From Nitrososphaerota archaeon (GTDB taxonomy: Archaea; Thermoproteota; Nitrososphaeria; Nitrososphaerales; JACPRH01), in NCBI GenBank assembly GCA_023379805.1, contig JAMCPI010000017.1, positions 19,977-83,976 of the forward strand: a DNA stretch of 64,000 nt. The letters are read 5' to 3'. Position 1 is the first letter of the stretch; each line of letters starts with the position of its first letter. Shown here one piece after another: positions 22,475 through 51,805 of this stretch. The translations under genes were made by a program, and so were the position numbers. The notes under the pieces were generated by a model. The model worked only from the letters and a program-made list of their open reading frames with translations. It did no database searches and had not been told where the DNA came from.

Positions 22475-22511
22475 AGACGATCCTTTAAGGATCGTCTTAC
22501 TCCTATTTTTT
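22475..22511 (+). terminator. Conserved hairpin + T-tract (paralog 4)
   Basis: AGACGATCC...GGATCGTCT (22475-22497), followed by TTTTTT at 22506-22511. Confidence 0.6.
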
Positions 22512-22785: not shown

Positions 22786-22800
22786 AAAGTTTATATAAAA
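22786..22800 (+). promoter_or_regulatory. Class II promoter TATA region (paralog 5)
   Basis: AAAGTTTATATAAAA lies 44 nt upstream of ATG 22830. The proximal GAGAATAACTTATGAAGAAT is shared with paralog 4. Confidence 0.55.
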
Positions 22801-22829
22801 ATGCCAATTATAACTACCGAGAATAACTT

Positions 22830-25013
22830 ATGAAGAATGATAGTTATTATCGAGCAACACTAATGTCAATACTCGTAATCCTCGCATTCAGCACTTTCAC
22901 ACCAACACTCGCATTCGCAGCACCCCTCGCCAATAACGACAAAGACTGGCAGTACGTTAACGGTAACAGCTGGGCATGGAACTACAGTCCACAGACACAG
23001 ATCAACAAGGACAACGTCGGCAACCTTGAAGTCAAGTGGATATTCCCTCTTGGAAGCAAAGCGTTAGCGCCGGCAGGCATGCAGGCAATACAAGGGTTTG
23101 CTGAGGGCACAACCACCCCACCGGTTGTTAGAGATGGAACAGTCTTCGTCAACAGCAACTGGGGTAGAATGTACGCCGTTGACGCCGCAACAGGCAAACA
23201 GAAATGGACCTACGACTATGTGCTCAACTTCAGTGATGTACGCAAGAAAATACCCGTGGAAATGGGCGGCATCATACACGACCACGGCTTCAGATACTGG
23301 GAGTCCGGAGATGCACTACTCTCCTACGGTCTAGCCTGTGACTTCTACGGCGTAGATGCAAAGACTGGGAAACAAAAGTTCTGGGTCAAAGACCTCTGCC
23401 TAGATGTACCTGGAAACCTTGGCATATACAGACCTAGTCTAGCCAACAGCGCAGTCATAGGCACCTACGAAAAGGGCCGACAGTTCATCGTCGTGTTCCC
23501 AAGCAGAATCCACAGCAACGTAGCTCAGGTAGCACCGCGCGACTCGAGACACGTCACAATGGGCATCAGCATGGACGCACCATACAAAGTAATGTGGCGA
23601 GTCTACAGCTCTCCACCGCAGGATCAACCCGTCAAAGACTGGGCGATCGCAGAATGTAGCAGCGGTTACTTCCGAGACATACCCTGTACCGAGGCACTAG
23701 CGGCTAACCGCGCAGGACTCGAATGGGACTTCGCACTCCCCAATCAGCCAATCGGCTGGTACGGCGGAGTCACAGCAAACTGGGGTCAACCTGTAGTTGA
23801 CGAAGATACAGGCCTGCTCTACACCCAGACAGGCAACCAAGGACCATACTCCAACATGACACTAGCACCAGGACCAAGACTCTTCGGCAGCACCATAATG
23901 TCCATAGACATGAACGCAGGCAAACGCATCTGGTGGCTACAACCATTCCCCCATGACCCGTATGACTATGACTGCAACTGGAGCGGATTGCTCACAGAAA
24001 ACCCGACGCTTGGCAAGGTCTATGTGTACGGCTGCAAGGAAGGAAGATACTTCGCGATTGATGCAGCTACAGGTAAACCGAAGCTAACTGTCGATGTCCG
24101 TAAAGACCAGTTCGCAAGAGGACAGATCTCTAGCGACCCGTATAAACTCCTCTATGAGCCTGATCCAAGAAGCTACTACGACATGAGGGAATGGAACTGG
24201 ATAAGCTACCCCGCAAAGAAAGTAGGCGAGCAAGGCAAGTTCTGCACCCTACCCTGCACAGTGTACCCGGACTTCTATAATGGCATCTTCGCAACAGACA
24301 GAGCGATAGACCCGCAGACACAAACATACTACCTCCACGAAGACGCGTTGACAGCAAGAATTGACAAGGAACACTCTTACTTCCCAGGAGATGCAAACTA
24401 TGCTGCAGGCAACCTGTTCACCACCTCCAGACCTCTGCCTACCAATAGCACAATCGTCGCCAGAGACCTAGCCACTGGTAAAGTAAAGTGGGTATGGTTC
24501 TTCCCCTACAGTCACCAACGCGCAGCCCCAGTGGTCACCGGAGGCATGGTGTTCAGTGGCTTCACAGACGGATACCTACGCTTCCTAGACAAGGACTCAG
24601 GCAAAATGCTAAACGAGATCGTCGTCGGATCGCCTATCGTAGTCCAACCAACAATCGGCAAAGACTCTCAAGGCAACTCAAAGATATTCGCCATCGTCGG
24701 CGCAACCCGCCTCGCCGGGGCAGCTAACTTCGGACTAGGTGGACAAAGTGATGTACCCGGAACACTAATAGCTCTCGGACTATCCCAGAAAGTCGCAACC
24801 GGAACGACAACAACTGTTACTACCACTTCCGCCACAACTGTTACTAGCACATCAGCTACAACAGTAACCACAGCTGCACCAGCTCAAACTGTGACTTCAT
24901 CGGTCACACAAACCGCGACCACAGGTCTACCAGCAGAAGTCACCTACGGGGCAGTCGGAGTAGCAGTAATAGCTCTGATTGCAGCAGCAGTACTAGTAAT
25001 GCGTAAGAAGTAA
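22830..25013 (+). CDS. Secreted PQQ-dehydrogenase-like beta-propeller with stalk and C-terminal anchor (paralog 5)
   Basis: 727 aa. The body is closest to paralog 3 (shared blocks include IGTYEKGRQFI, SRHVTMGISMDAPYKV, GCKEGRYF). PHDPYDYDCNWSG is present. The tail is GLPAEVTYGAVGVAVIALIAAAVLVMRKK. Confidence 0.9.
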   Translation: MKNDSYYRATLMSILVILAFSTFTPTLAFAAPLANNDKDWQYVNGNSWAWNYSPQTQINKDNVGNLEVKWIFPLGSKALAPAGMQAIQGFAEGTTTPPVVRDGTVFVNSNWGRMYAVDAATGKQKWTYDYVLNFSDVRKKIPVEMGGIIHDHGFRYWESGDALLSYGLACDFYGVDAKTGKQKFWVKDLCLDVPGNLGIYRPSLANSAVIGTYEKGRQFIVVFPSRIHSNVAQVAPRDSRHVTMGISMDAPYKVMWRVYSSPPQDQPVKDWAIAECSSGYFRDIPCTEALAANRAGLEWDFALPNQPIGWYGGVTANWGQPVVDEDTGLLYTQTGNQGPYSNMTLAPGPRLFGSTIMSIDMNAGKRIWWLQPFPHDPYDYDCNWSGLLTENPTLGKVYVYGCKEGRYFAIDAATGKPKLTVDVRKDQFARGQISSDPYKLLYEPDPRSYYDMREWNWISYPAKKVGEQGKFCTLPCTVYPDFYNGIFATDRAIDPQTQTYYLHEDALTARIDKEHSYFPGDANYAAGNLFTTSRPLPTNSTIVARDLATGKVKWVWFFPYSHQRAAPVVTGGMVFSGFTDGYLRFLDKDSGKMLNEIVVGSPIVVQPTIGKDSQGNSKIFAIVGATRLAGAANFGLGGQSDVPGTLIALGLSQKVATGTTTTVTTTSATTVTSTSATTVTTAAPAQTVTSSVTQTATTGLPAEVTYGAVGVAVIALIAAAVLVMRKK

Positions 25014-25032
25014 CCGTAGTAGCAGAAGCATC

Positions 25033-25071
25033 AGGACAATCCCAATGGATTGTCCTTTCCCCTATTTTATT
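25033..25071 (+). terminator. Conserved hairpin + T-tract (paralog 5, compensated stem variant)
   Basis: AGGACAATCC (25033-25042) pairs with GGATTGTCCT (25047-25056). The G-to-A change in the 5' arm is matched by a C-to-T change in the 3' arm relative to the GACGATCC/GGATCGTC consensus. TTTTATT follows. Confidence 0.55.
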
Positions 25072-25084
25072 AGATCATTACGAT

Positions 25085-25185
25085 CACTCCTCGAACGCAG
25101 CAATACCTAGCGGTGGGGTTGTGGCGGCTCACGACAGGCTGGTCACATTTTCCCCACGGGTGCAGGAGCCACATGTCTGCACCCA
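25085..25185 (+). ncRNA. Copy D of the ~100-nt conserved intergenic element (candidate structured RNA)
   Basis: The core is GGGGTTGTGGCGGCTCACGACAGGCTGGTCACATTTTCCCCACGG. The hairpin is GGGTGCAGG (25158-25166) / TCTGCACCC (25176-25184), with 8 Watson-Crick pairs plus a terminal G-U. Confidence 0.4.
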
Positions 25186-25337
25186 AAATTCTTCTATCCA
25201 CTTTTGTGGATCGATCTATCTGATTGAGCATTACTCATGCTGGACGGGTGTCTGTAAAATGGAATTTCTTTCTCCTCCGATTTCATAATTTTGACACCTC
25301 GGTATTACCATTTTCTAGACATCTGCATATTTTTTAC

Positions 25338-25426
25338 TTATTTATGTTAAATTAGGATTATACAAGTTTGTAAATTGGAATTCGAAATATATACGGTACC
25401 AATTCATTTTGCAGAATACTTATATT
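25338..25426 (+). promoter_or_regulatory. Class III promoter (distal box + TATA) of paralog 6
   Basis: The distal box TTATTTATGTTAAATTAGGATTATAC (25338-25363) and the TATA element ACTTATATT (25418-25426) have identical 80-nt and 38-nt spacings to the paralog 7 upstream region (27831/27911/27949). Confidence 0.55.
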
Positions 25427-25455
25427 GCGTATACATCTTCTTGATTTCGAAATTT

Positions 25456-27615
25456 ATGATGTCTATAAGATCACATAAATCTATGATATTGACTGTTCTA
25501 GCGATACTCGCATTCAGCACATTCCTACCCGCACTCGCATTCGCAGCACCAACAGGCGATAACGGCAAAGACTGGATGAACACGAATGGAAACTCCTGGG
25601 CACAGAACTACAGCCCACAAACACAGATCAACAAGAACAACATCAACAACCTAGAGGTGAAATGGCTCTTCCCGCTCGCATCCAAGGGCTTAGCTCCAAA
25701 AGGAATCCAAGCGGCCGGCATCGGCGAAGGAACCACTACACCACCAATTGTAAGAGACGGAAGAGTTTACGTGATCACCAGCTTCATGAAGACCTACGCA
25801 ATCGATGCAAAAACAGGTAAACAGGTCTGGACACACGACTACGACATTGACATCGAAGCAGCAAAGCAGAGATTACCTCTAATGATAGCTGGATCAGTTC
25901 ACAAACACGGCTTCCAGTACTGGGAGGGCGGAGACGCCATCATTAACCACGGACTAGCCTGCGACTTCTATGCACTTGACGCCAAAACCGGCAAGGAGAA
26001 GCTCCGCGTCGAAGACCTATGCAAAGACGTGCCTGGATCACTCTACAAGTATCTAGCGCGTCGACCCGGCGCAGAGCCCAGTATCGGGATCTACGAGAAG
26101 GGTCACCAATTCATCTATGTCTTAGCAGGCTACATGCATAGCAGCCTTACCGCACCAGACGCACGGCACGTCACCATGGGAATCGACATGGACAGCAAGA
26201 ACATCAAATGGAGAGTCTTCAGTGCTCCACCGCAAGATGTTCCAACTAGAGACTGGGCCCTACAGGAATGTGACATAGGCTACTTCCGCGACATTCCATG
26301 CAAAGACGTAGCGGCCAAGAACCTGAAAGGGCTCGAATGGGACTGGGCTCAACCAGGTGAAAAACCAAGCATGTGGGGTGGAGTAACTGCTAACTGGGGC
26401 CAAGCAATAGTTGACGAAGACACAGGCATCATGTACACCAACACAGGTAACCAAGGACCATACTCAAACATGTCAATGACACCCGGACCTCGTCTCTACG
26501 GAAGCACAATCATGGCAATCGACCTAAACAAAGGTAAGAGAGTTTGGTGGCTACAACCCTTCCCGCACGATCCATACGACTATGACTGCAACTGGAGCGG
26601 AATACTAGCTGAAGTCAAGGGTGTTGGCAAAGTCTACGCCAAAGGCTGCAAGGAGGGTATCCTCTACGTGGTTAACGCAGCTACGGGTAAGCCATTGTAC
26701 AAGGTGGATGTGAGAGATGATCAACTAGCAAGAAGGCAGATATCTACGCTAAGCAACAAGGCGTACGCACCTGATCCGATGAGCTACCACGATCTTAGGG
26801 AGTGGAACTGGATTAGCTACCCAGCCACAAAGCCAGGTGAGAAAGGGGAACACTGCACTCTACCATGCTCAATCTATCCAGCCTTCATGAACGGCATCTT
26901 CCAAACCGACATGTCCTATGACCCTGAAACCCAAACATTGATACTCTACGAAGGCGCACTGCAAGTAAACATCCTATCTGAACACCCATATGCCCAAGGC
27001 GCAGAGCTCTTCAGAACCAGCATGTATCCAACTGCGAACACCACAATCGTAGCTAGAGATCTAGCCACTGGCAAAGTGAAGTGGACTTGGTTCTACCAAT
27101 TGAGCAACCAGAGAGCGGCCATGGTAGTATCAGGAGGTACAGTATTCACCGGATTCACTGATGGACAAATGCGCTTCCTAGACAAGGACACAGGCAAGGA
27201 ACTAGGCAAGCTAAGCCTCGGATCACCAGTCCTCGTTCAACCAACTATAGGTCAAGATACAGATGGTAACTCAAAGATATTCGCGGTTGTCGGATCCACA
27301 TCACTCGCCTCAGGACCGCAGTACGGCAATCCAGGACCAACGATCCCAGGAACACTAGTCGCCATCGGCCTGAGTGACAAGGCAGCCCAAATCGTCACCA
27401 GTACATCTACAACTACCGCAACCACTACTGCAATCTCTAGCACCACAGCAACTACAACAGTCACATCAAGTGCACCGGCACAAACTATAACCACATCAAT
27501 CACCCAAACTCAAACCGAGACCTCAGGTCTACCATCAGAAGTAACCTATGCAGCAGTCGGCATAGCTGTAATAGCTATCGCAGGCGCAGCATTCTTAGCA
27601 ATGCGGAAGAAGTAG
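25456..27615 (+). CDS. Secreted PQQ-dehydrogenase-like beta-propeller with stalk and C-terminal anchor (paralog 6)
   Basis: The start is moved from 25375 to ATG 25456. It lies 38 nt after ACTTATATT, as in paralog 7, within the shared TTTCGAAAtTTATG context. The signal peptide ends ...FSTFLPALAFAAP. PHDPYDYDCNWSG is present. The tail is GLPSEVTYAAVGIAVIAIAGAAFLAMRKK. Confidence 0.88.
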   Translation: MMSIRSHKSMILTVLAILAFSTFLPALAFAAPTGDNGKDWMNTNGNSWAQNYSPQTQINKNNINNLEVKWLFPLASKGLAPKGIQAAGIGEGTTTPPIVRDGRVYVITSFMKTYAIDAKTGKQVWTHDYDIDIEAAKQRLPLMIAGSVHKHGFQYWEGGDAIINHGLACDFYALDAKTGKEKLRVEDLCKDVPGSLYKYLARRPGAEPSIGIYEKGHQFIYVLAGYMHSSLTAPDARHVTMGIDMDSKNIKWRVFSAPPQDVPTRDWALQECDIGYFRDIPCKDVAAKNLKGLEWDWAQPGEKPSMWGGVTANWGQAIVDEDTGIMYTNTGNQGPYSNMSMTPGPRLYGSTIMAIDLNKGKRVWWLQPFPHDPYDYDCNWSGILAEVKGVGKVYAKGCKEGILYVVNAATGKPLYKVDVRDDQLARRQISTLSNKAYAPDPMSYHDLREWNWISYPATKPGEKGEHCTLPCSIYPAFMNGIFQTDMSYDPETQTLILYEGALQVNILSEHPYAQGAELFRTSMYPTANTTIVARDLATGKVKWTWFYQLSNQRAAMVVSGGTVFTGFTDGQMRFLDKDTGKELGKLSLGSPVLVQPTIGQDTDGNSKIFAVVGSTSLASGPQYGNPGPTIPGTLVAIGLSDKAAQIVTSTSTTTATTTAISSTTATTTVTSSAPAQTITTSITQTQTETSGLPSEVTYAAVGIAVIAIAGAAFLAMRKK

Positions 27616-27637
27616 TGACCGAAGCAACGGTAACAAT

Positions 27638-27672
27638 GGGCGATCCTTCCGGATCGTCCCCCCTCTTTTATT
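27638..27672 (+). terminator. Conserved hairpin + weak T-tract (paralog 6)
   Basis: GGGCGATCC (27638-27646), loop ttcc, GGATCGTCC (27651-27659) with one G-U pair, followed by TTTTATT. Confidence 0.5.
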
Positions 27673-27682
27673 GGGATATTAC

Positions 27683-27775
27683 ACTTGCTCCTCAAACGCG
27701 GCGATACCTCGCATAGCGGGGGATTGTGTCGGCTTAGATGAATATCCGTGTGACCTTTTCCGCCCTTCCCCGCTT
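27683..27775 (+). repeat. Copy E (degenerate) of the conserved intergenic element
   Basis: CTTGCTCCTCAAACGCGGCGATACCTCGCATAGCGGGGGATTGTGTCGGCT aligns with 25085-25128 of copy D. The 3' hairpin half has eroded. Confidence 0.35.
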
Positions 27776-27830
27776 CCCAAGTTTTGTTATTCTGCCTGTA
27801 TTATCTTCTAAAAGCGTTCTTTTTCTCCGT

Positions 27831-27919
27831 TTATTTATGCTAAATCGGGATTATACTGATCAATAAATTGTCTTCATAATAAGTACGATAATAACCACGT
27901 TTGTAGAAAGACTTATATT
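27831..27919 (+). promoter_or_regulatory. Class III promoter (distal box + TATA) of paralog 7
   Basis: TTATTTATGCTAAATCGGGATTATAC (27831-27856) and ACTTATATT (27911-27919). The spacing is identical to paralog 6. Confidence 0.55.
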
Positions 27920-27948
27920 AATTATGATGAATGTTTGTTTCGAAAATT

Positions 27949-30060
27949 ATGAAACATCTGAAGCCATATAAAGTGACTATACTGTCTATTCTCATAATCC
28001 TCTCATTCAGCACATTCCTACCCGCACTAGCATACGCAGCACCCCTAGCAAACACCGAGAAGGACTGGCAGTATGTTAACGGAAACAGTTGGGGACAGAA
28101 CTATAGTCCCGAGACCCAGATCAACAAGAACAACGTAGGTAACCTTGAAGTGAAGTGGGTCTTCCCCTTCGGCAGTAAAGACTTGGCGCCAGCAGCCATA
28201 AGGGCCCTAGGTGCACAAGAAGGTGTCAACACCCCGCCAGTCGTCCGCAACGGCGTGGTCTACGTAACCAGCAACTACCTCAAAACCTACGCAATCGACG
28301 CAAAGACCGGCGCACAGCTATGGACACATGACTACACCTTCGACGTGGCAGCCGTCAACAAAAGCCTGCCTTGGGCGTGGGGTGGCTTACTCAGCTCGCA
28401 CCTCCACGGTATTAGGTACTGGGAGGGCGGCGACGCCATCCTCTACGAAGGAATGGCCTGCGACATCGTAGCTATAGCTGCGAAGACAGGTAAAGAAAGC
28501 TTCCGAATCAACGATCTCTGCAAGAACATCCCTGGAAGCATCTACAAATACTTCGCCAGCCCGAACGCTCAGGCCAGCCTCGGAACCTACGAGAAGGGTA
28601 AGCAATTCATCATAGTCCTACCCGGTCAAATGCACTCCACAATCTACGCGGGTGACTCGCGACACGTCACGATGGGCATCGACATGAATAGCAAACAAGT
28701 TCTCTGGAAAGTCTTCAGCTACCCACCTCAAGACAAGCCTACTAAAGACTGGGCAACACAAGAGTGCGATATAGGCTACTTCCAAACCTACACATGCAAA
28801 GAGGTAGCGGCAAAGAACCCGTCTCAGCTCGAATGGGACTGGGCTCAGCCTAACCAGCCACCCAACATCTACGGCGGAGTCACAGCTAACTGGGGACAAA
28901 TGATCGTAGATGAAGACACAGGCATCCTATACACTCAGACAGGCAACCAAGGACCATATACAAATGTATCAACTACACCTGGACCAAGACTCTACGGCAG
29001 CACCATCATGGCCATAGACATGAATTCAGGCAAACGCATATGGTGGCTACAACCCTTCCCGCACGATCCATACGACTATGACTGCAACTGGGGAGGCATA
29101 CTAGCTGAAACCAAGTCAATCGGTAAGGTCTACATGAAGGGATGCAAAGAAGGCAGACTCTACGTAATGAACGCGAAGACAGGCCAGCCAATCTACATGA
29201 AAGATGTGCTCCAAGAGCAGATTTCTATCGGCCAAATATCTCCACTCGCTGGAAAGGAGCCTAAGGACGGAGGAGTCAAGTTCCACCTCACAGATCCATT
29301 TAGCGATGACATGAGGGGTTGGAAGTTCGTGACAGACGGCAGAATATGCACGGCTCCATGCAAGCTCTATCCAAGCTACTTCAACGGCATCTTTGCAACA
29401 GACATGACCTATGACCCTACAACCGATACTCTCTACCACTACGCCAACGCATTCATGACATCAATTACTGCGGAGCTTCCAGTTGTCCCAGGTAACAACG
29501 TAGTTGCCACCAAGGACTACTCTCCAACAAATGCCACAATCATTGCTAGAGACGCATCCACAGGAGCAATAAAGTGGAACTACCTCTACAAGACTAGCGC
29601 TCAACGCTCCGCATTGGTAGTGACAAGCGACCTACTCTTCTCAGGCTTCACAGACGGACAAATGAAATTCCTCGACAAATCCACCGGCAAACTACTCAGC
29701 ACAGTCAACCTAGGAGCACCTATCGCAATCGCTCCAACAACAGGCCAAGACTCTGACGGCAAACAGAAGATATTCGTAATCGCAGGCATAACCACCCTCC
29801 CACAGGCCTTCGGTCAAGCCTATGGCGCAACCGGAGCAATCCAACCAGGTGTCCTAGTCGCACTCGGACTATCAGATAAAGCAACAACAGGAGGATCAGT
29901 AACTACCGTAACGACAGCAACCACCCAAACAATTACAACATCAATAACCAACCAAGTCACACAGACCTCAGAAACAATAGGCCCGATCACCTACGGCGCA
30001 ATAGCAGTAGCTGTTATTGCAATCATCGCCGCAGCAGTCCTAGTGATGAGAAAGAAGTAG
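27949..30060 (+). CDS. Secreted PQQ-dehydrogenase-like beta-propeller with short stalk and C-terminal anchor (paralog 7)
   Basis: The start is moved from 27931 to ATG 27949 on conserved promoter spacing. The signal peptide ends ...FSTFLPALAYAAP. Motifs present: HGIRYWEGGDA, PHDPYDYDCNWGG. The tail variant is TIGPITYGAIAVAVIAIIAAAVLVMRKK. Confidence 0.88.
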   Translation: MKHLKPYKVTILSILIILSFSTFLPALAYAAPLANTEKDWQYVNGNSWGQNYSPETQINKNNVGNLEVKWVFPFGSKDLAPAAIRALGAQEGVNTPPVVRNGVVYVTSNYLKTYAIDAKTGAQLWTHDYTFDVAAVNKSLPWAWGGLLSSHLHGIRYWEGGDAILYEGMACDIVAIAAKTGKESFRINDLCKNIPGSIYKYFASPNAQASLGTYEKGKQFIIVLPGQMHSTIYAGDSRHVTMGIDMNSKQVLWKVFSYPPQDKPTKDWATQECDIGYFQTYTCKEVAAKNPSQLEWDWAQPNQPPNIYGGVTANWGQMIVDEDTGILYTQTGNQGPYTNVSTTPGPRLYGSTIMAIDMNSGKRIWWLQPFPHDPYDYDCNWGGILAETKSIGKVYMKGCKEGRLYVMNAKTGQPIYMKDVLQEQISIGQISPLAGKEPKDGGVKFHLTDPFSDDMRGWKFVTDGRICTAPCKLYPSYFNGIFATDMTYDPTTDTLYHYANAFMTSITAELPVVPGNNVVATKDYSPTNATIIARDASTGAIKWNYLYKTSAQRSALVVTSDLLFSGFTDGQMKFLDKSTGKLLSTVNLGAPIAIAPTTGQDSDGKQKIFVIAGITTLPQAFGQAYGATGAIQPGVLVALGLSDKATTGGSVTTVTTATTQTITTSITNQVTQTSETIGPITYGAIAVAVIAIIAAAVLVMRKK

Positions 30061-40240: not shown

Positions 40241-42427
40241 TTACCCTACTATTTTGTAGACTATGACTCCTGCGAAGAGTCCGTCTCTGGGTTGAGCTAG
40301 GCTTGATGACATGAATGCTAGTTTGAGGGGTCCTTGGCCGTCAGCCGGGTACTTCATGTTGTAGAAGTAGGTGGATTGGAAGCCGTTTTGGTATTGAGTG
40401 GCGTTTGTGAAGGCTAGCTGGTTGCCCTGCGGCTCAACGTAGCTTGCGAAGGTGAAGGGCATCATTTTGCCTAGGAAGGTGTTGTCCCAGAAGTAGGGTT
40501 TAGGTGTGAACTCATCGTTCTCCAGATACTTCTTTTCGTCGAAGCCGCCTATCCTCATGAACCACTGCTTCTTGCTTTCGTCTCCAGCGTTGCCGAGCAG
40601 ATAGATTCTCTGGTTACTACCCTGCACGGTGAACGATTGGCCGACCACGAATATGACTACGTAGTCCGCCTTCAAATCGTGCAGTATCTTCAGCCCAGTC
40701 TTCTCGTCGGAGATAAACATCTGCCCTATCTGAGCGATTCTTGTAGTGTTGATGGTAGCGTTATCCGCTAAACTAGTTCTGTTACCCATTACTGTAATCC
40801 AGTAACCATAGTCCCACCAAGCAGCTAAGACTGTGGGTTTACCGTCAGACTGATACGGTGGTGTACTGTGGTTAATCCACGACAGGGTCTCAAGCCAATC
40901 AGGTATAGTAGCCCTGTAGTTTGTGGACGCATCAGCAATGCTTACCGGCGCATCAGCTGTTTGAAGCCAGTTCGTCCGCAACGGATAAGCGACAGGTAAA
41001 GAGATGATTGCAATAACGAAGACTGAGTAGACAAGCTTAACACCAGTTCGAGCCTCACCTATCTTAAACTTCTTCTTCGTAACTGATGATGTAGTGGATG
41101 GGCGAAGCATCGTCGAAGTAAGCTCATGCAGCCCGATTCCAGCGAGAATCGCAATGGCGATTGACGAGTAGACCATCAGCCTAGCGAAGGAACCTGAGAC
41201 GTAGAGCGCACCTATAGCGAGCACCAGTGTAAATCCGGCATAGATGGTTCTCTTGCGCACCATCATCAGGGCTCCGAAGCCGGCTAGGAATAGTAACGCC
41301 AAGTATGATGAGAGGTACTCTGCTCCAGTCGGTGTCTGATGCTCTGCAACTGACTGGACCAGCGGAATATTCGATCTAAAGAATGGGTCAAGGACACTTT
41401 GATACCTGCCTCCGAGGCTCGGTATCACTCCGAGGCTCGCATACACCGCTAAGCCCAATACTGCTAGGAAGATGACTTTTAGAAGCGTGCGCAGATAGTC
41501 TTTCGGGTCAACCAAGCTCTTTACACTGTACGCCACTGTTGAGAATAGTAGGCCGCCGAGCAGCGCTATACCTGCTAATCCTGAGATAATCTCGGGGCCG
41601 GGACGCGGAAAGGATGCGCTGAACACTAAGTCTGCGGCTACGAACAGGCTTCCGAGGTAAATTGTTTTCTTCATATCCACCTTCAGGAAAGGTGCTATGA
41701 CGAAGAGTCCTCCGAAGACCGCGTTAAAGTACATTGAGCCTCCCCACGCAGTATTAGCGAGTCCCAGTATGAGGCCGGCTGATCCGGCGCGGATAATCTG
41801 GCTTAACCGGGATGTTCTCTCATCGTAAATCGTCAGGAAGAGATAGCTGCCTGCGATCGCTAGGAATAATGCCAGCGGCTCAGATTTGAACCAGCCCATA
41901 GCGCCTCTCTGAATAATCGGAGGCGAAAAAGCGATTACTAAGGCTGCCAGTAACCCAGCTGATGCACTGCTAATTTTTCTTACAAGCAGGTAGGTGACGA
42001 GCGTAGTTAAAGCTCCGAGGAACACCGGGAAAAGAACAAGGTAGTCGTAAAGCGATATATTGATTCCCAAAACGTTCCGAGCGACAAGATACGATATTGC
42101 TCCTGTGAAGTGTAATCCTTCCTGAGAAGTACGTGCGACGTCTCGACCTTCGGGGTACCACGTGTTATAGTCTCTCCACGAGAAGTAATCTATGAAACCG
42201 GCGACACCCTTCTGATCAAAGTGATCCACGATGTAATTGGTCGCACGATAGTCAAAGTAGGGGTCGAACTCGTGAAGATAGAAACCGTACTTCGCAGGGT
42301 AAATCCTCATCATTAAAGCTGCTGAGAATATGGCAACAAGTGCCAGAGCAATTATGATTGTGCTTCTCCGCACCGTCGGTCTTTGTAACGCCTTTCTCCA
42401 TCGTGCCATACTGGTGAGCGATGCCAT
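40241..42427 (-). CDS. aglB: Archaeal oligosaccharyltransferase AglB (STT3 family)
   Basis: 728 aa. The N-terminal region is polytopic. The WWDYGYWI motif is present, followed by a soluble C-terminal domain. Confidence 0.9.
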   Translation of the reverse strand: MASLTSMARWRKALQRPTVRRSTIIIALALVAIFSAALMMRIYPAKYGFYLHEFDPYFDYRATNYIVDHFDQKGVAGFIDYFSWRDYNTWYPEGRDVARTSQEGLHFTGAISYLVARNVLGINISLYDYLVLFPVFLGALTTLVTYLLVRKISSASAGLLAALVIAFSPPIIQRGAMGWFKSEPLALFLAIAGSYLFLTIYDERTSRLSQIIRAGSAGLILGLANTAWGGSMYFNAVFGGLFVIAPFLKVDMKKTIYLGSLFVAADLVFSASFPRPGPEIISGLAGIALLGGLLFSTVAYSVKSLVDPKDYLRTLLKVIFLAVLGLAVYASLGVIPSLGGRYQSVLDPFFRSNIPLVQSVAEHQTPTGAEYLSSYLALLFLAGFGALMMVRKRTIYAGFTLVLAIGALYVSGSFARLMVYSSIAIAILAGIGLHELTSTMLRPSTTSSVTKKKFKIGEARTGVKLVYSVFVIAIISLPVAYPLRTNWLQTADAPVSIADASTNYRATIPDWLETLSWINHSTPPYQSDGKPTVLAAWWDYGYWITVMGNRTSLADNATINTTRIAQIGQMFISDEKTGLKILHDLKADYVVIFVVGQSFTVQGSNQRIYLLGNAGDESKKQWFMRIGGFDEKKYLENDEFTPKPYFWDNTFLGKMMPFTFASYVEPQGNQLAFTNATQYQNGFQSTYFYNMKYPADGQGPLKLAFMSSSLAQPRDGLFAGVIVYKIVG

Positions 42428-42911
42428 TGTTATACCGTCTACGATGTGGTGAGAATACTCTGTTTAAAAGCTTCTGCCGTCCCGTCAATCTAAACGAAGG
42501 CAACGCATCATTCACATACCGCTTGAGACGCACCTAACACAGTTCTTCACCGGCATACCAAAGAGCCGCATAATATCCGCAGCCAGCCTCACTATACTTT
42601 TCAATACTATTCGACAAGCCTCAAAGATGCTGAACTTGGTGTCTTAGAAGGCGAAAACCATCTCTTCACTACACCTCTCCTAGCGGCATTCAAGTTGCTG
42701 CAGCGGCGTAGAGCAAGTCTGCTGTAAGCTGAACCTGACATCACCCTAATCTCTGAATGCGGTTATATTGGAGAATAGACAGCGGAATATCATGTTAATC
42801 CCGGTATTTTTCTCTACAGTCTATAGACCCACTTAATTTTTTTATGTACCCCAATACTGTTAGATCACTAGCTTTATGTGCCTCTCAGGGCATCGATTCG
42901 AGTGAAGTTCT

Positions 42912-43835
42912 TTGCGAGACGCTAGACACCTATGGCTGCTGGCACCTATCATGCTCTCCTCGCTAGCGTTGATCCTGGTTTTCCAAGGACTGGTCCCAGC
43001 AGCACTGGGAGACGTGAAGCTGACTGAACACGGAGGAACCTCAAAATGCTTCATCTGCCACACTATGGAGAACCCGGGTGACCCAGTATGCATGAGATGT
43101 CATTACAACCAGTTTCATCGTGAGTACAGTCCGTATATCCATAGTATACGGGTGAATACTACGTATCAGAGCTGTGCAGTGCAACACTGTCACGGAGGTA
43201 TTGTTACCTCGCTTAATGGTAGTGTTCATGCTGGGTTGAGCTGCGGGGCCTGTCATCAGGTTCTGCATGTGTCCCGGTATGAGCCTGAAGCAGGCGCATG
43301 GATGTTTCTTAGCAGAGTCAACAGCAGCAGCACTGGAGGTGATGTGAGAGCTTATCGTCCGAGTGTGCCTGTTAACTTTAGTAAGAGTGTCTTCTTTTTT
43401 GATGGTAGCAACGATACTGTGAAGCTCGGGGTGTCGCTTACCGCTCTTGGTGAAGGGACTGTGCACTGGGCTTGGACCAACATATCGGGTACTGCTTCCG
43501 GGATATCGTCGTCAACAAGGTATTTGACCTGCTTCAACTGCCACTTCCTGACCACGAACCCAGCTGAAGCCGGGCTTGCGAAGCAGATCCAGGGAAAAAC
43601 AATGATCGCGGTACCCGACTTCGCGTTAAAGCTGTCACCTCACAGCATCACAGACAAAACATTAAACCAAGCCTACATTGAAGCAAAAAACAACAACAGC
43701 AATAATGGTGGCGGCGGCAATGATAATGGGCTCGGCTTGTTTGGTTCCGCTGAGGAGTATATGCAGGGCGGCTTAGGCCTCATTCTAGGCGCAGGAATAC
43801 TTACAGCTCTCGCAGCCACCCGAAGATACATGTAG
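42912..43835 (+). CDS. Membrane-anchored multihaem c-type cytochrome
   Basis: There are four CxxCH motifs (CFICH, CMRCH, CGACH, CFNCH) plus one C-x4-CH (CAVQHCH). It has an N-terminal signal/TM (TTG start), several N-x-S/T sequons, a Gly/Asn-rich linker, and a C-terminal TM GLGLILGAGILTALAATRRYM. Confidence 0.75.
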   Translation: MRDARHLWLLAPIMLSSLALILVFQGLVPAALGDVKLTEHGGTSKCFICHTMENPGDPVCMRCHYNQFHREYSPYIHSIRVNTTYQSCAVQHCHGGIVTSLNGSVHAGLSCGACHQVLHVSRYEPEAGAWMFLSRVNSSSTGGDVRAYRPSVPVNFSKSVFFFDGSNDTVKLGVSLTALGEGTVHWAWTNISGTASGISSSTRYLTCFNCHFLTTNPAEAGLAKQIQGKTMIAVPDFALKLSPHSITDKTLNQAYIEAKNNNSNNGGGGNDNGLGLFGSAEEYMQGGLGLILGAGILTALAATRRYM

Positions 43836-44015: not shown

Positions 44016-44828
44016 TTGGTGAAGAAGGAGGGTAAGAAGCTGAGTCTTGAGTTCATTCCCGTCTTTATCGGGAGGAAGGATGACCGCTTCGATTATCCAC
44101 GTGTCATTATCGATGCTGTGAAGAGTTCGGGTGAAGAGCTGCGGGACAACGATGTCTTAGCTGTCTCCAGCAAATTCATCTCTATGGCTAAAGGGATGCT
44201 GGTTGATCTCAGCAAAGTCGAGGTCAGTGAGAAGGCTCAGAGGCTAGCTGAAAAACTGGGTATGGATCAGAGGATCGCGGAGCTCGTTATCAGGGAAGCT
44301 GACGCTATCCTCGGAGGCGTCCCAGGCTTCGCATTAGCTTTGAAGAACGGTGTAATCGCACCTAACGCCGGTATAGACAAGTCGAATGCACCTGCAGGAT
44401 ACGCTATACTCTACTCTAAAGACCCATTCGGAGACGCTGAGGCGCTGCGGAAGAAGATTCTTCAGGAGCTAGGTAAACGAGTAGGCATTGTGGTGACTGA
44501 CAGCAGACTGATGCCTTTGAGAATGGGGACAACAGGAATCGCGATCGCCGTAGCCGGCTTCGAGCCATTGAAGGATGAGCGTGGACATAAAGACCTGTTC
44601 GGAAACGTTCTACGCGTAACAAGGCGAGCATTAGCGGACCAGATCGCAGCGGGCATCCAACTGCTGATGGGTGAGGCGGATGAGAGCCGCCCAGTCGTCA
44701 TTGTAAGAGCGTCGAGCAGTGCACCTTGGACCCTAACTGACAAATCTATGAGCGCTGCGGACTTGACTGTTCCACCGGATCAATGCATCTATATGCGCGG
44801 TCTCCCTGAACGAAACTTCAAATTCTAG
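44016..44828 (+). CDS. cofE: Coenzyme F420-0:L-glutamate ligase
   Basis: 270 aa. The pattern LAVSSKFISMAKG...APNAGIDKSNAP...VVTDSR is the CofE pattern. Confidence 0.8.
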   Translation: MVKKEGKKLSLEFIPVFIGRKDDRFDYPRVIIDAVKSSGEELRDNDVLAVSSKFISMAKGMLVDLSKVEVSEKAQRLAEKLGMDQRIAELVIREADAILGGVPGFALALKNGVIAPNAGIDKSNAPAGYAILYSKDPFGDAEALRKKILQELGKRVGIVVTDSRLMPLRMGTTGIAIAVAGFEPLKDERGHKDLFGNVLRVTRRALADQIAAGIQLLMGEADESRPVVIVRASSSAPWTLTDKSMSAADLTVPPDQCIYMRGLPERNFKF

Positions 44829-45243: not shown

Positions 45244-47367
45244 ATGTCACTTACTAGACATTATAGAGTAGCAATACTCTCCGTACTCGTAATTCTAGTA
45301 TTCAGCACATTCATACCAGCACTAGTGTACGCAGCACCCCAAGGCAGTTCTGAAAAGGATTGGCAATACACTGACGGCAACTCTTGGGCATGGAACTACA
45401 GCCCAGAGACTCAGATCAACAAGAACAATGTGCAGAATCTAGAGGTAAAGTGGGTCTTCCCAATAGGCACCAAAGCAAGTGCCCCCGCGGCACTGCCAAC
45501 TGCAAACTTAGGTGAAGGCTCAACCACACCACCAATAGTAAAGGATGGAACGGTCTTTATCACAACAAAGTACCTAAAGACCTACGCCATAGACGCGAAA
45601 ACCGGCGCTCAGAAATGGGTGCATGACTACAAAGTCGACTACAAAACAATTGCAGAAAAACTGAAGATCTCAATGAGTCTCGTCCTATCCCACCTTCACG
45701 GCACACGATACTGGGCGGGTGGAGACGCGATAATTAACACAGGAATAGTCTGCGACTTCTACGGCGTAGACGCCAAAACCGGTAGTGAAAAGTTCCGAGT
45801 TAACGATCTCTGCAAAGACGTACCCGGAAACATCTACAGCTACAAACCATCTCCTTCACAGCAAAACAACATAGGTACGTATGACAAAGGTCGTCAATTC
45901 ATCTACGTGCTGCCTGGAAACATGCATGGCGGACACGGCTCACTATACTACGGTGATGCAAGACACGTTACCATGGGCATCAGCATGGATAATTACCAAG
46001 TACAATGGCGCATCTACAGCTACCCACCTCAAGACGTCCCAACTAAAGACTGGGCTCTGCAAGAGTGCAGCATCGGATATTTCCAAACCTACCCCTGCAC
46101 AGATGTAGCAGCAAAGAACCAAGCCCAACTCGAATGGGACTGGGCAATGCCCGGTGAAAAACCAAGCCCCTACGGCGGAGTCACAGCTAACTGGGGACAA
46201 CCAGTAGTTGACGAAGACACAGGCATCCTATACACCAACACAGGCAACCAAGGACCATACACAAACATGACGCTCACACCCGGACCACGTCTCTACGGGT
46301 CAACCATCATGGCTATTGACATGAACGCAGGCAAACGCATATGGTGGCTACAACCCTTCCCGCACGACCCATACGACTATGACTGCAACTGGAGCGGCAT
46401 CCTCGCTGATGTCCCGACTCTAGGCAAGGTCTACATGAAGGGATGCAAGGAAGGTATCTTGTACGTGATGGATGCGGCCACAGGCAAGCCGAAGTATACA
46501 GTGGATGTAATCAATGATCAGGTGAAGTGGGGACAGGTAAGTGCAGCTGCAGCTACCGAGGTAAGCAAAGGTGGCATAAAGCACCACAAATCTGATCCGT
46601 TCAGCACGGACCTAAGAGAATGGAGGTTCATCTCAGATGGAAAGTACTGTGGATTGCCTTGCCCAATATATCCAACATTCGGCAACGGACTCTTCGCCAC
46701 CGACATGTCATACGATCCACAAACAAGCACATTATACCACTACGCACTAGGCGCAATGGCGAACATGATTGGAGAATTCCCGTATGTAGAAGGAAAGGCT
46801 CTAAACGCGTTCCAAACACCTGCTCAGTCTAACGTCACGCTAGTCGCTAGAGATGCAGCTACCGGTAAGGTCAAGTGGACCTACTTCTACGGACTCTCCG
46901 GTCAACGCGCCCACATGGTGGTGACACCAGACCTACTCTTCACAGGCTTCAACGACGGCATTATGAGGTTCTTCGACAAGAACACAGGTAAAGTGATATT
47001 CGAAAAGCCTCTAGGCGCAGGAATCTCAGTGGGAGTCACAACAGGTCAGGACTCAGATGGCAAACAAAAGATATTCGCGATACCCGGCAGCTCAGTTGTA
47101 GTAGCCCTCGGTCTCGCTGATAAAACCAGTGAAGTCAAAACCACAACAGTCACTTCCACAGCAGCTACTACTCAGACAGTCACAACAACACAAACAGCTC
47201 AAACACAAACAACCACAGTCACCTCAAGTGCACCGGCTAAAACCACGACAGTGGTTTCATCAGTCACACAGACAACCGGATTACCTTCAGAAGTCACCTA
47301 CGCAGCAGTCGGTATAGCTGTAATAGCTATCATCGCAGCAGCAGTACTAGTGATGCGTAAGAAGTAG
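45244..47367 (+). CDS. Secreted PQQ-dehydrogenase-like beta-propeller with stalk and C-terminal anchor (paralog 8, satellite copy)
   Basis: 707 aa. The signal peptide ends ...FSTFIPALVYAAP. Motifs present: HGTRYWAGGDA, PHDPYDYDCNWSG. The tail is GLPSEVTYAAVGIAVIAIIAAAVLVMRKK. Confidence 0.9.
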   Translation: MSLTRHYRVAILSVLVILVFSTFIPALVYAAPQGSSEKDWQYTDGNSWAWNYSPETQINKNNVQNLEVKWVFPIGTKASAPAALPTANLGEGSTTPPIVKDGTVFITTKYLKTYAIDAKTGAQKWVHDYKVDYKTIAEKLKISMSLVLSHLHGTRYWAGGDAIINTGIVCDFYGVDAKTGSEKFRVNDLCKDVPGNIYSYKPSPSQQNNIGTYDKGRQFIYVLPGNMHGGHGSLYYGDARHVTMGISMDNYQVQWRIYSYPPQDVPTKDWALQECSIGYFQTYPCTDVAAKNQAQLEWDWAMPGEKPSPYGGVTANWGQPVVDEDTGILYTNTGNQGPYTNMTLTPGPRLYGSTIMAIDMNAGKRIWWLQPFPHDPYDYDCNWSGILADVPTLGKVYMKGCKEGILYVMDAATGKPKYTVDVINDQVKWGQVSAAAATEVSKGGIKHHKSDPFSTDLREWRFISDGKYCGLPCPIYPTFGNGLFATDMSYDPQTSTLYHYALGAMANMIGEFPYVEGKALNAFQTPAQSNVTLVARDAATGKVKWTYFYGLSGQRAHMVVTPDLLFTGFNDGIMRFFDKNTGKVIFEKPLGAGISVGVTTGQDSDGKQKIFAIPGSSVVVALGLADKTSEVKTTTVTSTAATTQTVTTTQTAQTQTTTVTSSAPAKTTTVVSSVTQTTGLPSEVTYAAVGIAVIAIIAAAVLVMRKK

Positions 47368-47843: not shown

Positions 47844-50015
47844 ATGGATTATCACTACTCTGCTGCTGAGCCGCCTTATACGCTGGTGATCTGCGAAAAA
47901 CCGGATGCTGCGCAACGCATAGCTGATGCTCTAAAGGAGGGCGATTTGAAGCAGAGCAGCTACGGCAGAGTAAAGACCTTCACACTCACCTACAGAGGAA
48001 GACGCTACGTGATATGCTCCGCGCTAGGCCACCTGTACAGCATAGGTGACCCCTCTCAGAAACGCCACATATACCCCGTGTTTGACGTAGAGTGGTTCCC
48101 CGCATACAAGATGGATAAGAAGAGAAGCTACACCGCCCAGCGGATAGAAACAATCCATAGACTAGCAGCTGGAGCGGACTCCTTCATCAACGCCTGCGAC
48201 TTCGATTTAGAAGGCGAAACAATCGGATACAACATCTTGAAGTACGCCTGCGGCGAGAAGCAGAGCAACGCATTCAGAGCCAAATTCTCCACCCTCACCG
48301 AGGAGGAGCTAAGAGAAGCATTCCAGACAGCTTCACGCGGCTTAGGCGAAGGATTAGCTCAAGCAGGCAGAACGAGACACGCCGTGGACTTCATCTTCGG
48401 CATAAACCTGTCAAGAGCACTCTCCGAGTCTTACTACGCCTCCAACAAGCGTTACCGTGTCGTCACAATAGGTCGTGTGCAGGGACCAACACTCTCCTAC
48501 GCGGTGCAGCGGGAAATCGAGATACGAACCTTCGTCACAACACCCTTCTGGACAATCACAGCAGAGCTGGACAAGAACGGCACCGTCATAACCGCGGAGT
48601 ACGAGAAGAGACGCATCGCACAGCTAGCGGAGGTTAACCAGATAACTGAGGCCTGTCGAGGAAAGACCGGTACAGTCAGCAACATAACTCGATCACGTTT
48701 CCAGCAGCCCCCACCCACCCCCTTCGACATCGGGGATCTGCAGAAAGAGGTCTACCGCATCTTCGGCTACTCCCCAAGCCAAACACTCAAAATCGCCGAG
48801 CGACTCTACTTGGACGCACTCATCTCCTATCCACGCACCTCAAGCCAGAAGCTCCCACCGTCAATCAACTACCGGAAAATCCTCTCAGGGCTACAGCGAA
48901 ACCGGGAGTACACCAGAGAAGCTGAAGAGGTATCAAGAGGCAGACTCCAACCGCATGAAGGCGCTAAAACAGACCCAGCGCACCCAGCCATCTACCCAAC
49001 CGGCGAGCTCCCCAGAAGAACCCTAACCTCAACTGAGAAGCAGCTCTACGACCTAGTTGTCAGAAGGTTCCTAGCGGTCTTCAGCGAATACGCGCTCAGG
49101 GAAGGAGTATCCGCAACAATCAACATCGCAGGCTACCTCTTCAAAATCTACGGACGCATCACTTTGAGAGAGGGCTGGCTGAAGTATTACCGCAAATACA
49201 CAGGAACAGAGGACAGAGCAACCCCGAATCTCGCCGAAGGCGAGGAGCTCCCAGTCCTCAGCGTGATACCTAAAGAGAAGTTTGATCAGCCGCCGCCCAG
49301 ATACAACCAGAGCAGCCTACTTGAGAAGATGGAGGCCGAAGAGATAGGAACCAAGGCGACTCGGGCGGACATCATCAAAACACTTTACGACCGAGGCTAC
49401 CTAGCTGAACGCAGCATCATAGCCACCGACCTAGCCTTCTCAGTCGTCGAGCTAATGGCGAAACACAGCCCCCGCATCATCTCAACAGAGATGACACGAG
49501 GAATTGAGGAGCATCTAAGACAGATAGAGCAGGGCGAAATCGACGAGGAGCAGGTCATCCAAGAAGCAGTGGACCAACTCTACGAGTCGCTGACAACAAT
49601 CAAAGACGCTGAAGAAGAGATAGGCGTAGAGATGACCGAAGCCATAACAAAAACGGTCCGGGAAATGAACAGCCTCGGCCCCTGCCCGAAGTGCAAAACA
49701 GGAACCTTACACGTCATCCGCTCAAAGAAAACCCATAAACGATTCGTCGGCTGCAGCAACTACCAGCAAGGAGGATGCAACGCCTCAGCACCACTACCTC
49801 AGAAAGGCACCTTAACCATACCCGGAAAAAGCTGCCCCACCTGCGGATGGCCCATCGTCTACGTCCGGTTCGGACGATACCCTTGGCGACTATGCATCAA
49901 CATGAACTGCCCAACAAAAGAAAAGGAGAAGGAGAAAAAAGAGAATGAAACCCCGCGCAAAATGCCCACTATGCGGAAGAGAAGCAGCAACAGTAGAAGC
50001 AGCAGAAGCAGCTGA
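47844..50015 (+). CDS. topA: DNA topoisomerase, type IA
   Basis: The Toprim start is LVICEKPDAA. DFDLEGE and the active-site region ISYPRTSSQ are present. The C-terminal zinc ribbons are CPKCKTG...CSNY and CPTCGWP. Confidence 0.9.
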   Translation: MDYHYSAAEPPYTLVICEKPDAAQRIADALKEGDLKQSSYGRVKTFTLTYRGRRYVICSALGHLYSIGDPSQKRHIYPVFDVEWFPAYKMDKKRSYTAQRIETIHRLAAGADSFINACDFDLEGETIGYNILKYACGEKQSNAFRAKFSTLTEEELREAFQTASRGLGEGLAQAGRTRHAVDFIFGINLSRALSESYYASNKRYRVVTIGRVQGPTLSYAVQREIEIRTFVTTPFWTITAELDKNGTVITAEYEKRRIAQLAEVNQITEACRGKTGTVSNITRSRFQQPPPTPFDIGDLQKEVYRIFGYSPSQTLKIAERLYLDALISYPRTSSQKLPPSINYRKILSGLQRNREYTREAEEVSRGRLQPHEGAKTDPAHPAIYPTGELPRRTLTSTEKQLYDLVVRRFLAVFSEYALREGVSATINIAGYLFKIYGRITLREGWLKYYRKYTGTEDRATPNLAEGEELPVLSVIPKEKFDQPPPRYNQSSLLEKMEAEEIGTKATRADIIKTLYDRGYLAERSIIATDLAFSVVELMAKHSPRIISTEMTRGIEEHLRQIEQGEIDEEQVIQEAVDQLYESLTTIKDAEEEIGVEMTEAITKTVREMNSLGPCPKCKTGTLHVIRSKKTHKRFVGCSNYQQGGCNASAPLPQKGTLTIPGKSCPTCGWPIVYVRFGRYPWRLCINMNCPTKEKEKEKKENETPRKMPTMRKRSSNSRSSRSS

Positions 50016-51337: not shown

Positions 51338-51805
51338 GTGGTCAAGATGCAGACCGTTGGAGTCGGAGAGCGATTAAGGATGGGTTTGAAGAAGAAGACC
51401 GGTGCACTCGTCCATCGCGTTGAGAGCCACAGCGTAGTTTCAAACACGCTTAGAAGCTTCTCCCGCACCTCAGTCTTAGATGTTTTGAGGGACAGGGTGC
51501 TTGAAATCGTCTACGTCATCGCAATTCTGCTCTTCTCTTCAGGCCTCATCAACGGTATGATCGAGGGCTCCTCACCTTACGTAGGGAACTTCCTCATCTA
51601 CCCGCGAAGCGGCATACAAACCATACCTGAGACCTTCATCTACCTATTCACAATGTTGATTGGAAGCTTAGGTGTTTACCTGCTCTACTTAGGTGCACGA
51701 CAAGGCCTGCGCCGCCGCATCGCCAACTTCTACCTGGCCTTCGGCTTCTCAGCAGTCATCATCGCGCTATCATTCGCGCTATTCATCTTCGAGCTTAAAA
51801 TGTAG
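51338..51805 (+). CDS. Hypothetical membrane protein
   Basis: 155 aa (GTG start) with 3 hydrophobic helices. No family recognised. Confidence 0.45.
   Translation: MVKMQTVGVGERLRMGLKKKTGALVHRVESHSVVSNTLRSFSRTSVLDVLRDRVLEIVYVIAILLFSSGLINGMIEGSSPYVGNFLIYPRSGIQTIPETFIYLFTMLIGSLGVYLLYLGARQGLRRRIANFYLAFGFSAVIIALSFALFIFELKM

Follow-up and report, generated by a model that had tools for sequence, protein, structure and literature searches.

The protein PcECN (extracellular cytochrome nanowire) of Pyrobaculum calidifontis is the structurally solved tetrahaem, bis-histidine (bis-His) subunit of an extracellular 'insulated' nanowire (10.1101/2023.06.12.544705; PMC12203936; PMC12954529; Baquero et al. 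2023, Cell 186:2853, as cited in PMC12954529). Its haems are reported to lie about 4-6.5 Å apart, edge to edge (PMC12203936). That the number of haems varies inside the PcECN family has already been noted (10.1101/2025.05.29.656830). The gene with which we are concerned lies at positions 42912..43835 on the + strand of a stretch of 64,000 nucleotides from contig JAMCPI010000017.1 of a Nitrososphaerota archaeon, which as a whole is referred to as the window, and encodes a multihaem c-type cytochrome of 307 amino acids. Judged from profile comparisons, this cytochrome belongs to the PcECN family. Since the family and its variable haem number are known, the protein is a new, divergent member and not a new kind of system. 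It probably functions as a surface electron-transfer cytochrome and as one link in a quinol-fed multihaem network.

The relationship to PcECN (UniProt A3MW92, PDB 8E5F) is seen when a profile of the family (alignment A2) is compared with the PDB: the chain 8E5F_A is found at an E-value of 2.5e-34 over nearly the full length, including the C-terminal transmembrane helix and the RRR tail. When a profile built only from thaumarchaeal sequences is compared by hhalign with an alignment that contains PcECN, the probability is 100%, the E-value 5.4e-39 and the number of aligned columns 201, in a register in which all four haem sites and His77, His106, His119 and His244 (plus His40) coincide with histidines or sites of PcECN. 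The haem sites of the window protein and of PcECN pair as CFICH with CISCH, CAVQHCH with CINCH, CGACH with GCACH, and CFNCH with CFNCH, the spacing differing at sites 2 and 3. The likeness thus covers the whole ectodomain with its four haem sites, and it includes the CFNCHF signature, an N-terminal signal peptide and, in the precursor, a C-terminal transmembrane helix with a basic tail. It should be noted, however, that the identity between the two proteins is only about 24%, that at site 2 the window protein has Cx4CH for the CxxCH of PcECN and at site 3 CxxCH for its CxCH, that a 13-residue insertion gives the window protein an additional, fifth CxxCH, and that a segment of about 90 residues of PcECN (residues 211-301) is missing from it. 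The hosts also differ, a hyperthermophilic crenarchaeon for PcECN and a Thaumarchaeota metagenome-assembled genome (MAG) for the window protein.

Relatives are few. A word-indexed search of 5.8 billion proteins returned only 12, all from Thaumarchaeota MAGs or unnamed metagenome contigs, and an exhaustive profile search of 1.84 billion representatives only 53, which fall into two size classes, one of single-domain proteins of about 250-310 amino acids with exactly 8 cysteines and one of two-domain proteins of 440-515 amino acids with 7-8 CxxCH. Members with named hosts come from Pyrodictium delaneyi, Thermoproteus and Desulfurococcales. For example, Pyrde_0262 of P. delaneyi (WP_055407548.1) matches the thaumarchaeal profile with an E-value of 1.4e-22; this protein and the Thermoproteus/Desulfurococcales homologues are of the same length class as the window protein and have the same 8-Cys core, but they have four sites with CxCH at site 3, and their hosts are known to make c-type cytochromes (PMC8105010; PMC4429474). 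In a neighbour-joining tree the thaumarchaeal sequences form one clade, in which the window copy and P0001 (M1503_09400) are the basal pair (P-numbers designate family members and L-numbers the loci examined). With narrow patterns, no confirmed relative was found in the GTDB genome contigs and metagenomes scanned, the wider alignment A2 being too divergent for patterns. The window cytochrome gave nothing above threshold against Pfam and NCBIfam; it scores 12.4 and 12.3 bits with the cytochrome c3/c7 families PF14522 and PF14537, below their cut-offs of 24.8 and 25, and for PF14522 there is a precomputed match in a few distant family members.

What is conserved in the family are the residues expected around haem. 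The three CxxCH sites and the Cx4CH site are conserved in the alignment of 12 thaumarchaeal sequences, as are His40, His77, His106, His119, His185 and His244, and identity between thaumarchaeal paralogues is 44-68% with haem motifs and histidines still kept. Among 32 family sequences, with identities down to 21%, C46, C49, H50, C88, H94, C111, C114, H115, C207, C210, H211 and H244 are invariant, and C93, H106 and H119 are conserved in at least 90%. His40 and His77 are invariant in the thaumarchaeal set and conserved in at least 90% of the family alignment A3, and in the PcECN-containing alignment A4 the H24 and P25 of the GHPD position are invariant. A transmembrane helix followed by an R/K tail closes every family member, the PcECN precursor included. 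The four family-wide haem sites together with the putative distal histidines are the sequence signature of a bis-His tetrahaem cytochrome. Site 3 is C-x-C-H in PcECN (PDB 8E5F residues ~107-110) and in about half of the distant members and CxxCH in the thaumarchaeal clade, and at site 2 the CxxCH of PcECN corresponds to Cx4CH in the thaumarchaeal clade; counts of CxxCH only therefore underestimate the number of haems in this family.

The gene itself is genuine. Its open reading frame (ORF) begins with TTG, and the product is exactly NCBI protein M1503_04865 from a MAG labelled 'Thaumarchaeota archaeon' / Nitrososphaerota, in which position 13327 of the record for contig JAMCWH010000011.1 corresponds to position 42912 of the window, that contig starting about 29.6 kb into the window; an identical protein, MCL5317583.1, is found in the sister assembly of GCA_023481325.1, from which the window must therefore derive. 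When stop-to-stop segments of at least 100 amino acids were counted in the window, 98 of the 99 had no CxxCH and the cytochrome ORF had four. As it is the only such segment with CxxCH, and as the motifs are invariant in the homologues, an origin of this motif density by chance is excluded. All five motifs listed in the original prediction are present in the product, namely CFICH (residues 46-50), CMRCH (60-64), CAVQHCH (88-94), CGACH (111-115) and CFNCH (207-211), and its N-terminal signal/membrane segment, Asn/Gly linker and C-terminal transmembrane helix are borne out by hydropathy and sequence; its six N-x-S/T sequons are in fact seven (N82, N102, N137, N155, N167, N190 and N261).

Along the + strand the features are arranged as follows. 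The predicted Sec-type signal peptide (residues 1-33; 42912..43010) has a hydrophobic core, lying in the first of the two hydrophobic stretches of the protein (residues ~4-38 and ~283-305), and ends in a cleavage-type site A-L-G/D-V, which is AFA/DV in most paralogues; P29, D34 and V35 are invariant in the 12-sequence thaumarchaeal alignment, and no twin-arginine motif was found in the signal peptide. His40 (43029..43031), a conserved extra histidine that is invariant in the thaumarchaeal alignment, stands in EHGG here and in GHPD in PcECN-like members. Haem site 1 (C46, C49, H50; 43047..43061), aligning with CISCH of PcECN, is invariant in 32 of 32 sequences. The putative fifth haem site CMRCH (C60, C63, H64; 43089..43103) lies within the 13-residue insertion, which is present in 5 of the 12 thaumarchaeal members (the window copy, P0001 and P0003-5) and nowhere else in the family. 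His77 (43140..43142), a candidate distal haem ligand, aligns with WSH of PcECN and is followed by haem site 2 (C88-x4-C93-H94; 43173..43193), where PcECN has CINCH. Haem site 3 (C111, C114, H115; 43242..43256), which is invariant and aligned with GCACH (C-x-CH) of PcECN, is flanked by two further candidate distal ligands, His106 in SVH (43227..43229) and His119 in CHxxLHV (43266..43268), both conserved in the family and aligned in the PcECN comparison. Three sequons follow that are conserved: N137-S-S (43320..43328), a sequon in 11 of the 12 subfamily members; N167-D-T (43410..43418), in 12 of 12 and family-wide, within two columns, in 25 of 32; and N190-I-S (43479..43487), in 12 of 12, which is part of an HWAWTNIS block. 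Haem site 4 (C207, C210, H211; 43530..43544) is invariant, has the signature CFNCHFLTxNPAEAG and aligns with CFNCHF of PcECN, and the candidate distal ligand His244 in SPH (43641..43643), invariant in 32 of 32, aligns with DPH. The Asn/Gly-rich linker (residues 258-276; 43683..43739) is confined to the window copy and P0001, and the protein closes with the predicted transmembrane helix (about residues 283-303) and the basic tail RRYM (43758..43832), a helix with R/K tail being common to the family.

The genomic surroundings of the relatives point to the company that the protein may keep. In the MAG that holds the window gene (GCA_023481325.1 or its sister assembly) there are at least six further PcECN-family members. 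L004 (JAMCWH010000010.1, 11.4 kb), a contig of the same MAG, holds an 11-kb multihaem cluster at 638-11197, in which the family members P0006, P0039 and P0051 are encoded alongside two octahaem cytochromes, each with 8 CxxCH and 16 Cys. One octahaem has a signal peptide and a C-terminal anchor; the other, encoded next to P0006 (L004 3610-4332), has an N-terminal transmembrane anchor and NrfH/NapC-like matches. Both pass Pfam cut-offs, with 39 and 52 bits for Cytochrome_C7 and 37 bits for Paired_CXXCH_1. The cluster also encodes a polytopic membrane protein of 580 amino acids and Cys-free secreted proteins, one of them Lon_C-like. Its composition is compatible with that of the window (GC 0.46 versus 0.49; tetranucleotide r 0.71, as compared with 0.12-0.41 for unrelated loci). 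A triad of a NapC-like octahaem, a divergently oriented family member and a large polytopic or secreted protein recurs, with significant protein similarity, in L006, L008 and L012, which are uncultured archaeal contigs. Conserved neighbours of the family (L004, L006, L008, L012 and L011) are other multihaem cytochromes, the NapC/NrfH-like octahaem and large membrane or secreted proteins, and on the Joint Genome Institute contig with thaumarchaeal P0005 a protein with seven CxxCH is encoded directly downstream.

Other neighbours are of a regulatory type. P0003, P0008 and P0009 adjoin a gene for an HTH_10 regulator, and at two of these loci there is also a DUF438-hemerythrin gene: L002 8780-9520 and L005 4414-5157 lie, together with HTH_10, just upstream of P0008 and P0009, and the HTH_10 gene upstream of P0003 is in another MAG (L001). 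Within the window, a hemerythrin-domain ORF is found at 19570-20067 (+), inside the array of pyrroloquinoline quinone (PQQ)-type genes. The hemerythrin and HTH_10 neighbours may reflect a regulatory link sensing redox state, O2 or iron. L002 and L005, both from GCA_023481325.1, agree in gene order, and their cytochrome genes resemble each other closely; they are near-duplicates, which suggests strain heterogeneity or recent duplication, and the paralogue counts may therefore be inflated by one.

We infer haem attachment, glycosylation, topology and role of the window protein from these features. The precursor would be exported by the Sec system and its signal peptide cleaved after ALG. Cytochrome c maturation (Ccm) would attach haem covalently at the four sites common to the family, of which three are CxxCH and one is Cx4CH, with a conserved distal histidine to complete each of them, and a fifth haem could sit at the clade-specific CMRCH insertion. 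N-glycosylation might occur at the three conserved sequons N137, N167 and N190. The C-terminal helix would tether the protein, so that the haem chain would lie on the outer face of the cell membrane. This outward-facing topology, which had been proposed in the original prediction and which the export signal and the C-terminal anchor support, is predicted from the lack of a twin-arginine motif, from the transmembrane helix and basic tail in all members and from the conserved sequons. The partners in the network would be encoded elsewhere in the genome, namely the two octahaems, one of them NapC/NrfH-like, and six or more other members of the family: the NapC/NrfH-like membrane octahaem could exchange electrons with the quinol pool, then further cytochromes would be involved and finally a partner outside the cell, for example Fe(III), humics or a second cell. 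The window copy may either polymerise into a filament or stay a tethered monomer, and electrons could flow either way.

Among other known cytochromes, the NapC/NirT/NrfH proteins resemble the window protein in being membrane-anchored, outward-facing multihaem proteins, and it is a relative of theirs that is encoded beside P0006. Their anchor, however, is N-terminal, whereas that of the window protein is C-terminal, and the window protein gave no signal with the NapC/NrfH-type models PF03264 and TIGR03153. AvECN (PDB 8E5G), OmcE and OmcS are extracellular, polymerising bis-His multihaem cytochromes and provide a functional analogy for a surface haem wire (PMC12203936; PMC12954529), but they have no sequence relation to the window family: in the PDB profile search OmcS came at an E-value of 2, and AvECN and OmcE gave no match. 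They have been described as unrelated folds with a convergent haem arrangement.

Several observations weigh against the assignment to the PcECN family and to a surface network, and they have to be kept in mind. The thaumarchaeal-only profile found no relevant match in the PDB and did not reach 8E5F; the homology is therefore remote and rests on intermediate sequences. Likewise, the single window sequence found nothing relevant in the PDB by phmmer. The designed Kelch proteins 8pjr and 8pjx from phmmer against the PDB were rejected as an artefact, the E-value being a sum over six repeats of about 5 bits each. The AlphaFold2 model from the 12-sequence thaumarchaeal alignment was unusable, with a predicted local distance difference test score (pLDDT) of 36; that from the 32-sequence alignment, haem-free, reached a pLDDT of 66, and a Foldseek search with it gave 8E5F as the only match that was not noise, weakly so (E 0.25, template modelling score 0.22), so that the support from the fold is weak. 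The window copy is a solitary gene, flanked by aglB and cofE and remote from the cytochrome cluster, and its membership in the network is therefore assumed from paralogy. The placement of the host in the Thaumarchaeota rests on the submitter's label, not on marker genes. As to haem attachment, a survey of 2015 reported Thaumarchaeota to be without c-type cytochromes and without CCM (PMC4429474), Pfam searches and tblastn with the archaeal ccmFCEAB of L010 found no ccm genes in the ~94 kb made up by the 64-kb window and L002-L005, and in a protein search with CcmF from L006 there was no protein of this MAG among the 120 matches listed of 910. Two of these matches were traced to other MAGs (GCA_053995975.1 and GCA_964462505.1). 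Nevertheless, a Ccm system is probably encoded in this genome, the indirect evidence being strong: CxxCH-type motifs and distal histidines are perfectly preserved in at least nine genes of the one MAG, with 44-68% identity between paralogues, and the solved homologue carries haem at the same sites.

Elsewhere in the family a gene for haem-c maturation is close by: in L006 the cytochrome cluster is 8 kb from a CcmF gene with the canonical WWD motif (WGGYWAWDPVE) and a thioredoxin/CcdA-like gene. This archaeal CcmF (L006 1-2656, - strand) has 952 amino acids, and its neighbour is a fusion of thioredoxin with a CcdA-like membrane domain; long CcmF forms of about 860-920 amino acids were a distinct group among the CcmF matches listed. 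In the loci of two thaumarchaeal MAGs, tblastn with ccmFCEAB found only a CcmF-like stretch of 54 amino acids, located in the membrane protein of 580 amino acids that is encoded downstream of P0006 (L004 5665-7407, +). The stretch is 43% identical to archaeal CcmF just after the WWD motif (LPWxxLTAYFHxR, including a transmembrane histidine). As the protein has no W-rich WWD motif and no Pfam match, it was not counted as a haem lyase; a role in haem handling, after very strong divergence, is one possibility, and a chance match is the other.

The alternative that gave rise to this analysis is that the expanded PQQ-like dehydrogenases encoded in the window have in this cytochrome an electron acceptor of their own at the cell surface, as methanol and ethanol dehydrogenases have in cytochromes cL and c550, and that together they make up a respiratory module there. 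Cytochromes cL and c550 are small, soluble monohaem proteins of class I, and their genes lie in the operon of the dehydrogenase. There is something to be said for this view: the cytochrome gene was correctly placed next to aglB and 1.4 kb upstream of PQQ paralogue 8 (484 nt and, from its stop codon to the start of paralogue 8, 1,408 nt), on the same strand as the latter; both proteins have a signal peptide and a C-terminal transmembrane anchor and are predicted (type-I, outward) to share the outer face of the membrane; paralogue 8 is a distant but true relative of the quinoprotein ethanol dehydrogenases (E 5e-19), which classically pass their electrons to c-type cytochromes; no PQQ paralogue has a CxxCH of its own, in agreement with the earlier statement that none has a fused cytochrome domain; and the literature acknowledges a gap as to what accepts electrons from thaumarchaeal PQQ enzymes (PMC7300363). 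However, only at the window copy, one of six thaumarchaeal loci examined, is there a PQQ gene within 10 kb, and there is none within that distance of P0003, P0008, P0009, P0006/P0039/P0051 or P0005, whereas the relatives in uncultured archaeal contigs sit in cytochrome clusters, their conserved partners being cytochromes and not propellers. Even in the window, cofE and a 415-nt spacer with a TATA-like box part the cytochrome gene from paralogue 8, no operon structure is apparent, each of the two genes appears to be under its own promoter, and seven of the eight PQQ paralogues are 13-31 kb away. A single adjacency means little in a genome that has eight PQQ loci and at least seven paralogues of the cytochrome. 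The window protein shares with cL and c550 that it is an extracytoplasmic c-type cytochrome, theirs accepting electrons from PQQ enzymes, which was the basis of the analogy, but it is multihaem with five haem motifs, anchored and of another family, gives no class I monohaem match in Pfam or NCBIfam, and has no conserved linkage to PQQ genes. In the literature, Aylward and Santoro proposed quinones or blue copper proteins as the acceptors and modelled PQQ-rich heterotrophic thaumarchaeal lineages as 'lacking cytochrome c' (PMC7300363), and where up to 8 PQQ genes per genome were described, a c-type cytochrome went unmentioned (PMC10640624). We therefore consider a dedicated PQQ partnership unlikely; the specific pairing claimed in the original prediction is not supported by the comparative evidence. 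It is more doubtful still that the thaumarchaeon builds PcECN-type wires, or a tethered relay, fed directly by surface PQQ dehydrogenases. If this were true, oxidation of extracellular substrates would be coupled to Fe(III), humics or partner cells largely outside the cell membrane, a respiratory layout not described for any archaeon, in a host that is non-hyperthermophilic and rich in PQQ dehydrogenases.

Two further alternatives leave the protein where it is or deny it its haem. Multihaem chains conduct in both directions. The same protein in the same place could thus carry electrons inward: an extracellular donor, for instance Fe(II) or a syntrophic partner, would supply them, and the quinone pool or a terminal oxidase would receive them; nothing in the L004 cluster fixes the direction of flow, and hemerythrin and DUF438-hemerythrin, which are O2/NO/iron-sensing domains, and HTH_10 are encoded next to several paralogues. 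But none of the loci examined showed a marker of Fe(II) oxidation, and the organisms of the characterised relative are discussed for outward extracellular electron transfer (PMC12954529), which makes an inward flow rather improbable. The motifs could, on the other hand, be free of haem for want of a maturation system, in which case the protein would be a Cys/His-rich metal-binding or disulfide-containing surface protein or the relic of a transferred gene. Besides the failure to find Ccm in the ~94 kb examined and the reported lack of cytochromes c and CCM in the phylum, it fits this explanation that some archaeal proteomes pair CxxCH proteins with few CCM homologues (PMC4429474, Fig. 2B legend). 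Against it, an invariant His follows each pair of cysteines, and a further four or five His are kept across paralogues at 44-68% identity, which is what selection for bis-His haem binding should produce; two proteins with 8 CxxCH and 16 Cys each are maintained in the same MAG; and the solved homologue bears four haems at these very sites (10.1101/2023.06.12.544705). A haem-free protein is accordingly the least probable of the readings considered here, and very improbable, and the surface cytochrome within a quinol-fed network, as set out above, is the reading that we prefer.

The remaining features of the neighbourhood can be described briefly. An A/T-rich box, cttaatttttttatgtac, at 42833..42850 (+), about 65 nt 5' of the start and read by eye, is a candidate archaeal TATA element of the cytochrome gene. 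aglB (40241..42427, -; STT3 E 2.6e-28) is divergently oriented, and cofE (44016..44828) is the next gene 3' of the cytochrome ORF. A small membrane ORF at 51338-51805 (+), 9 kb from aglB, gives a weak OST3/OST6-family match and may encode an accessory oligosaccharyltransferase subunit. Of the eight PQQ paralogues counted originally, seven are intact; the eighth is a split copy in two ORFs (14538-15719 and 15731-16840, +), of which the first matches residues 3-390 of paralogue 8 with 61% identity and the second residues 398-707 with 48%, the split reflecting either a pseudogene or an assembly frameshift, and the ORF at 47844-50015 encodes a topoisomerase and no PQQ paralogue. The PQQ paralogues (12069-30060, 45244-47367) all share a C-terminal end made up of a Thr-rich linker, the conserved motif GLPSEVTY, a transmembrane helix and RKK, an anchoring signal that differs from that of the cytochrome. 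An FG-GAP beta-propeller from the related uncultured archaeal clusters was considered as a relative of the PQQ paralogues and rejected for lack of significant similarity.

The interest of the finding lies in the host. Thaumarchaeal respiratory chains are usually described through copper proteins. The original statement that multihaem cytochromes are restricted to a minority of archaeal lineages is supported in so far as they are rare in Thaumarchaeota, a phylum reported to be without c-type cytochromes (PMC4429474) and with PQQ-rich, non-ammonia-oxidising lineages modelled without them (PMC7300363; PMC10640624). None of the 101 papers matched in our literature search linked cytochrome nanowires to Thaumarchaeota, although the homologue survey of the primary PcECN paper may already include thaumarchaeal sequences. 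For the thaumarchaeal PQQ dehydrogenases the protein is a candidate acceptor, though an unsupported one. The recurring module of NapC-like octahaem, PcECN-like tetrahaem, large polytopic protein and Lon_C-like secreted protein is a lead to the machinery by which archaeal cytochrome filaments are assembled. The at least seven PcECN-family genes together with the two octahaems, one of them a NapC/NrfH-like candidate quinol dehydrogenase, suggest that this phylum has the means for extracellular electron transfer, and the only structurally solved crenarchaeal nanowire family would thereby reach beyond the hyperthermophiles.

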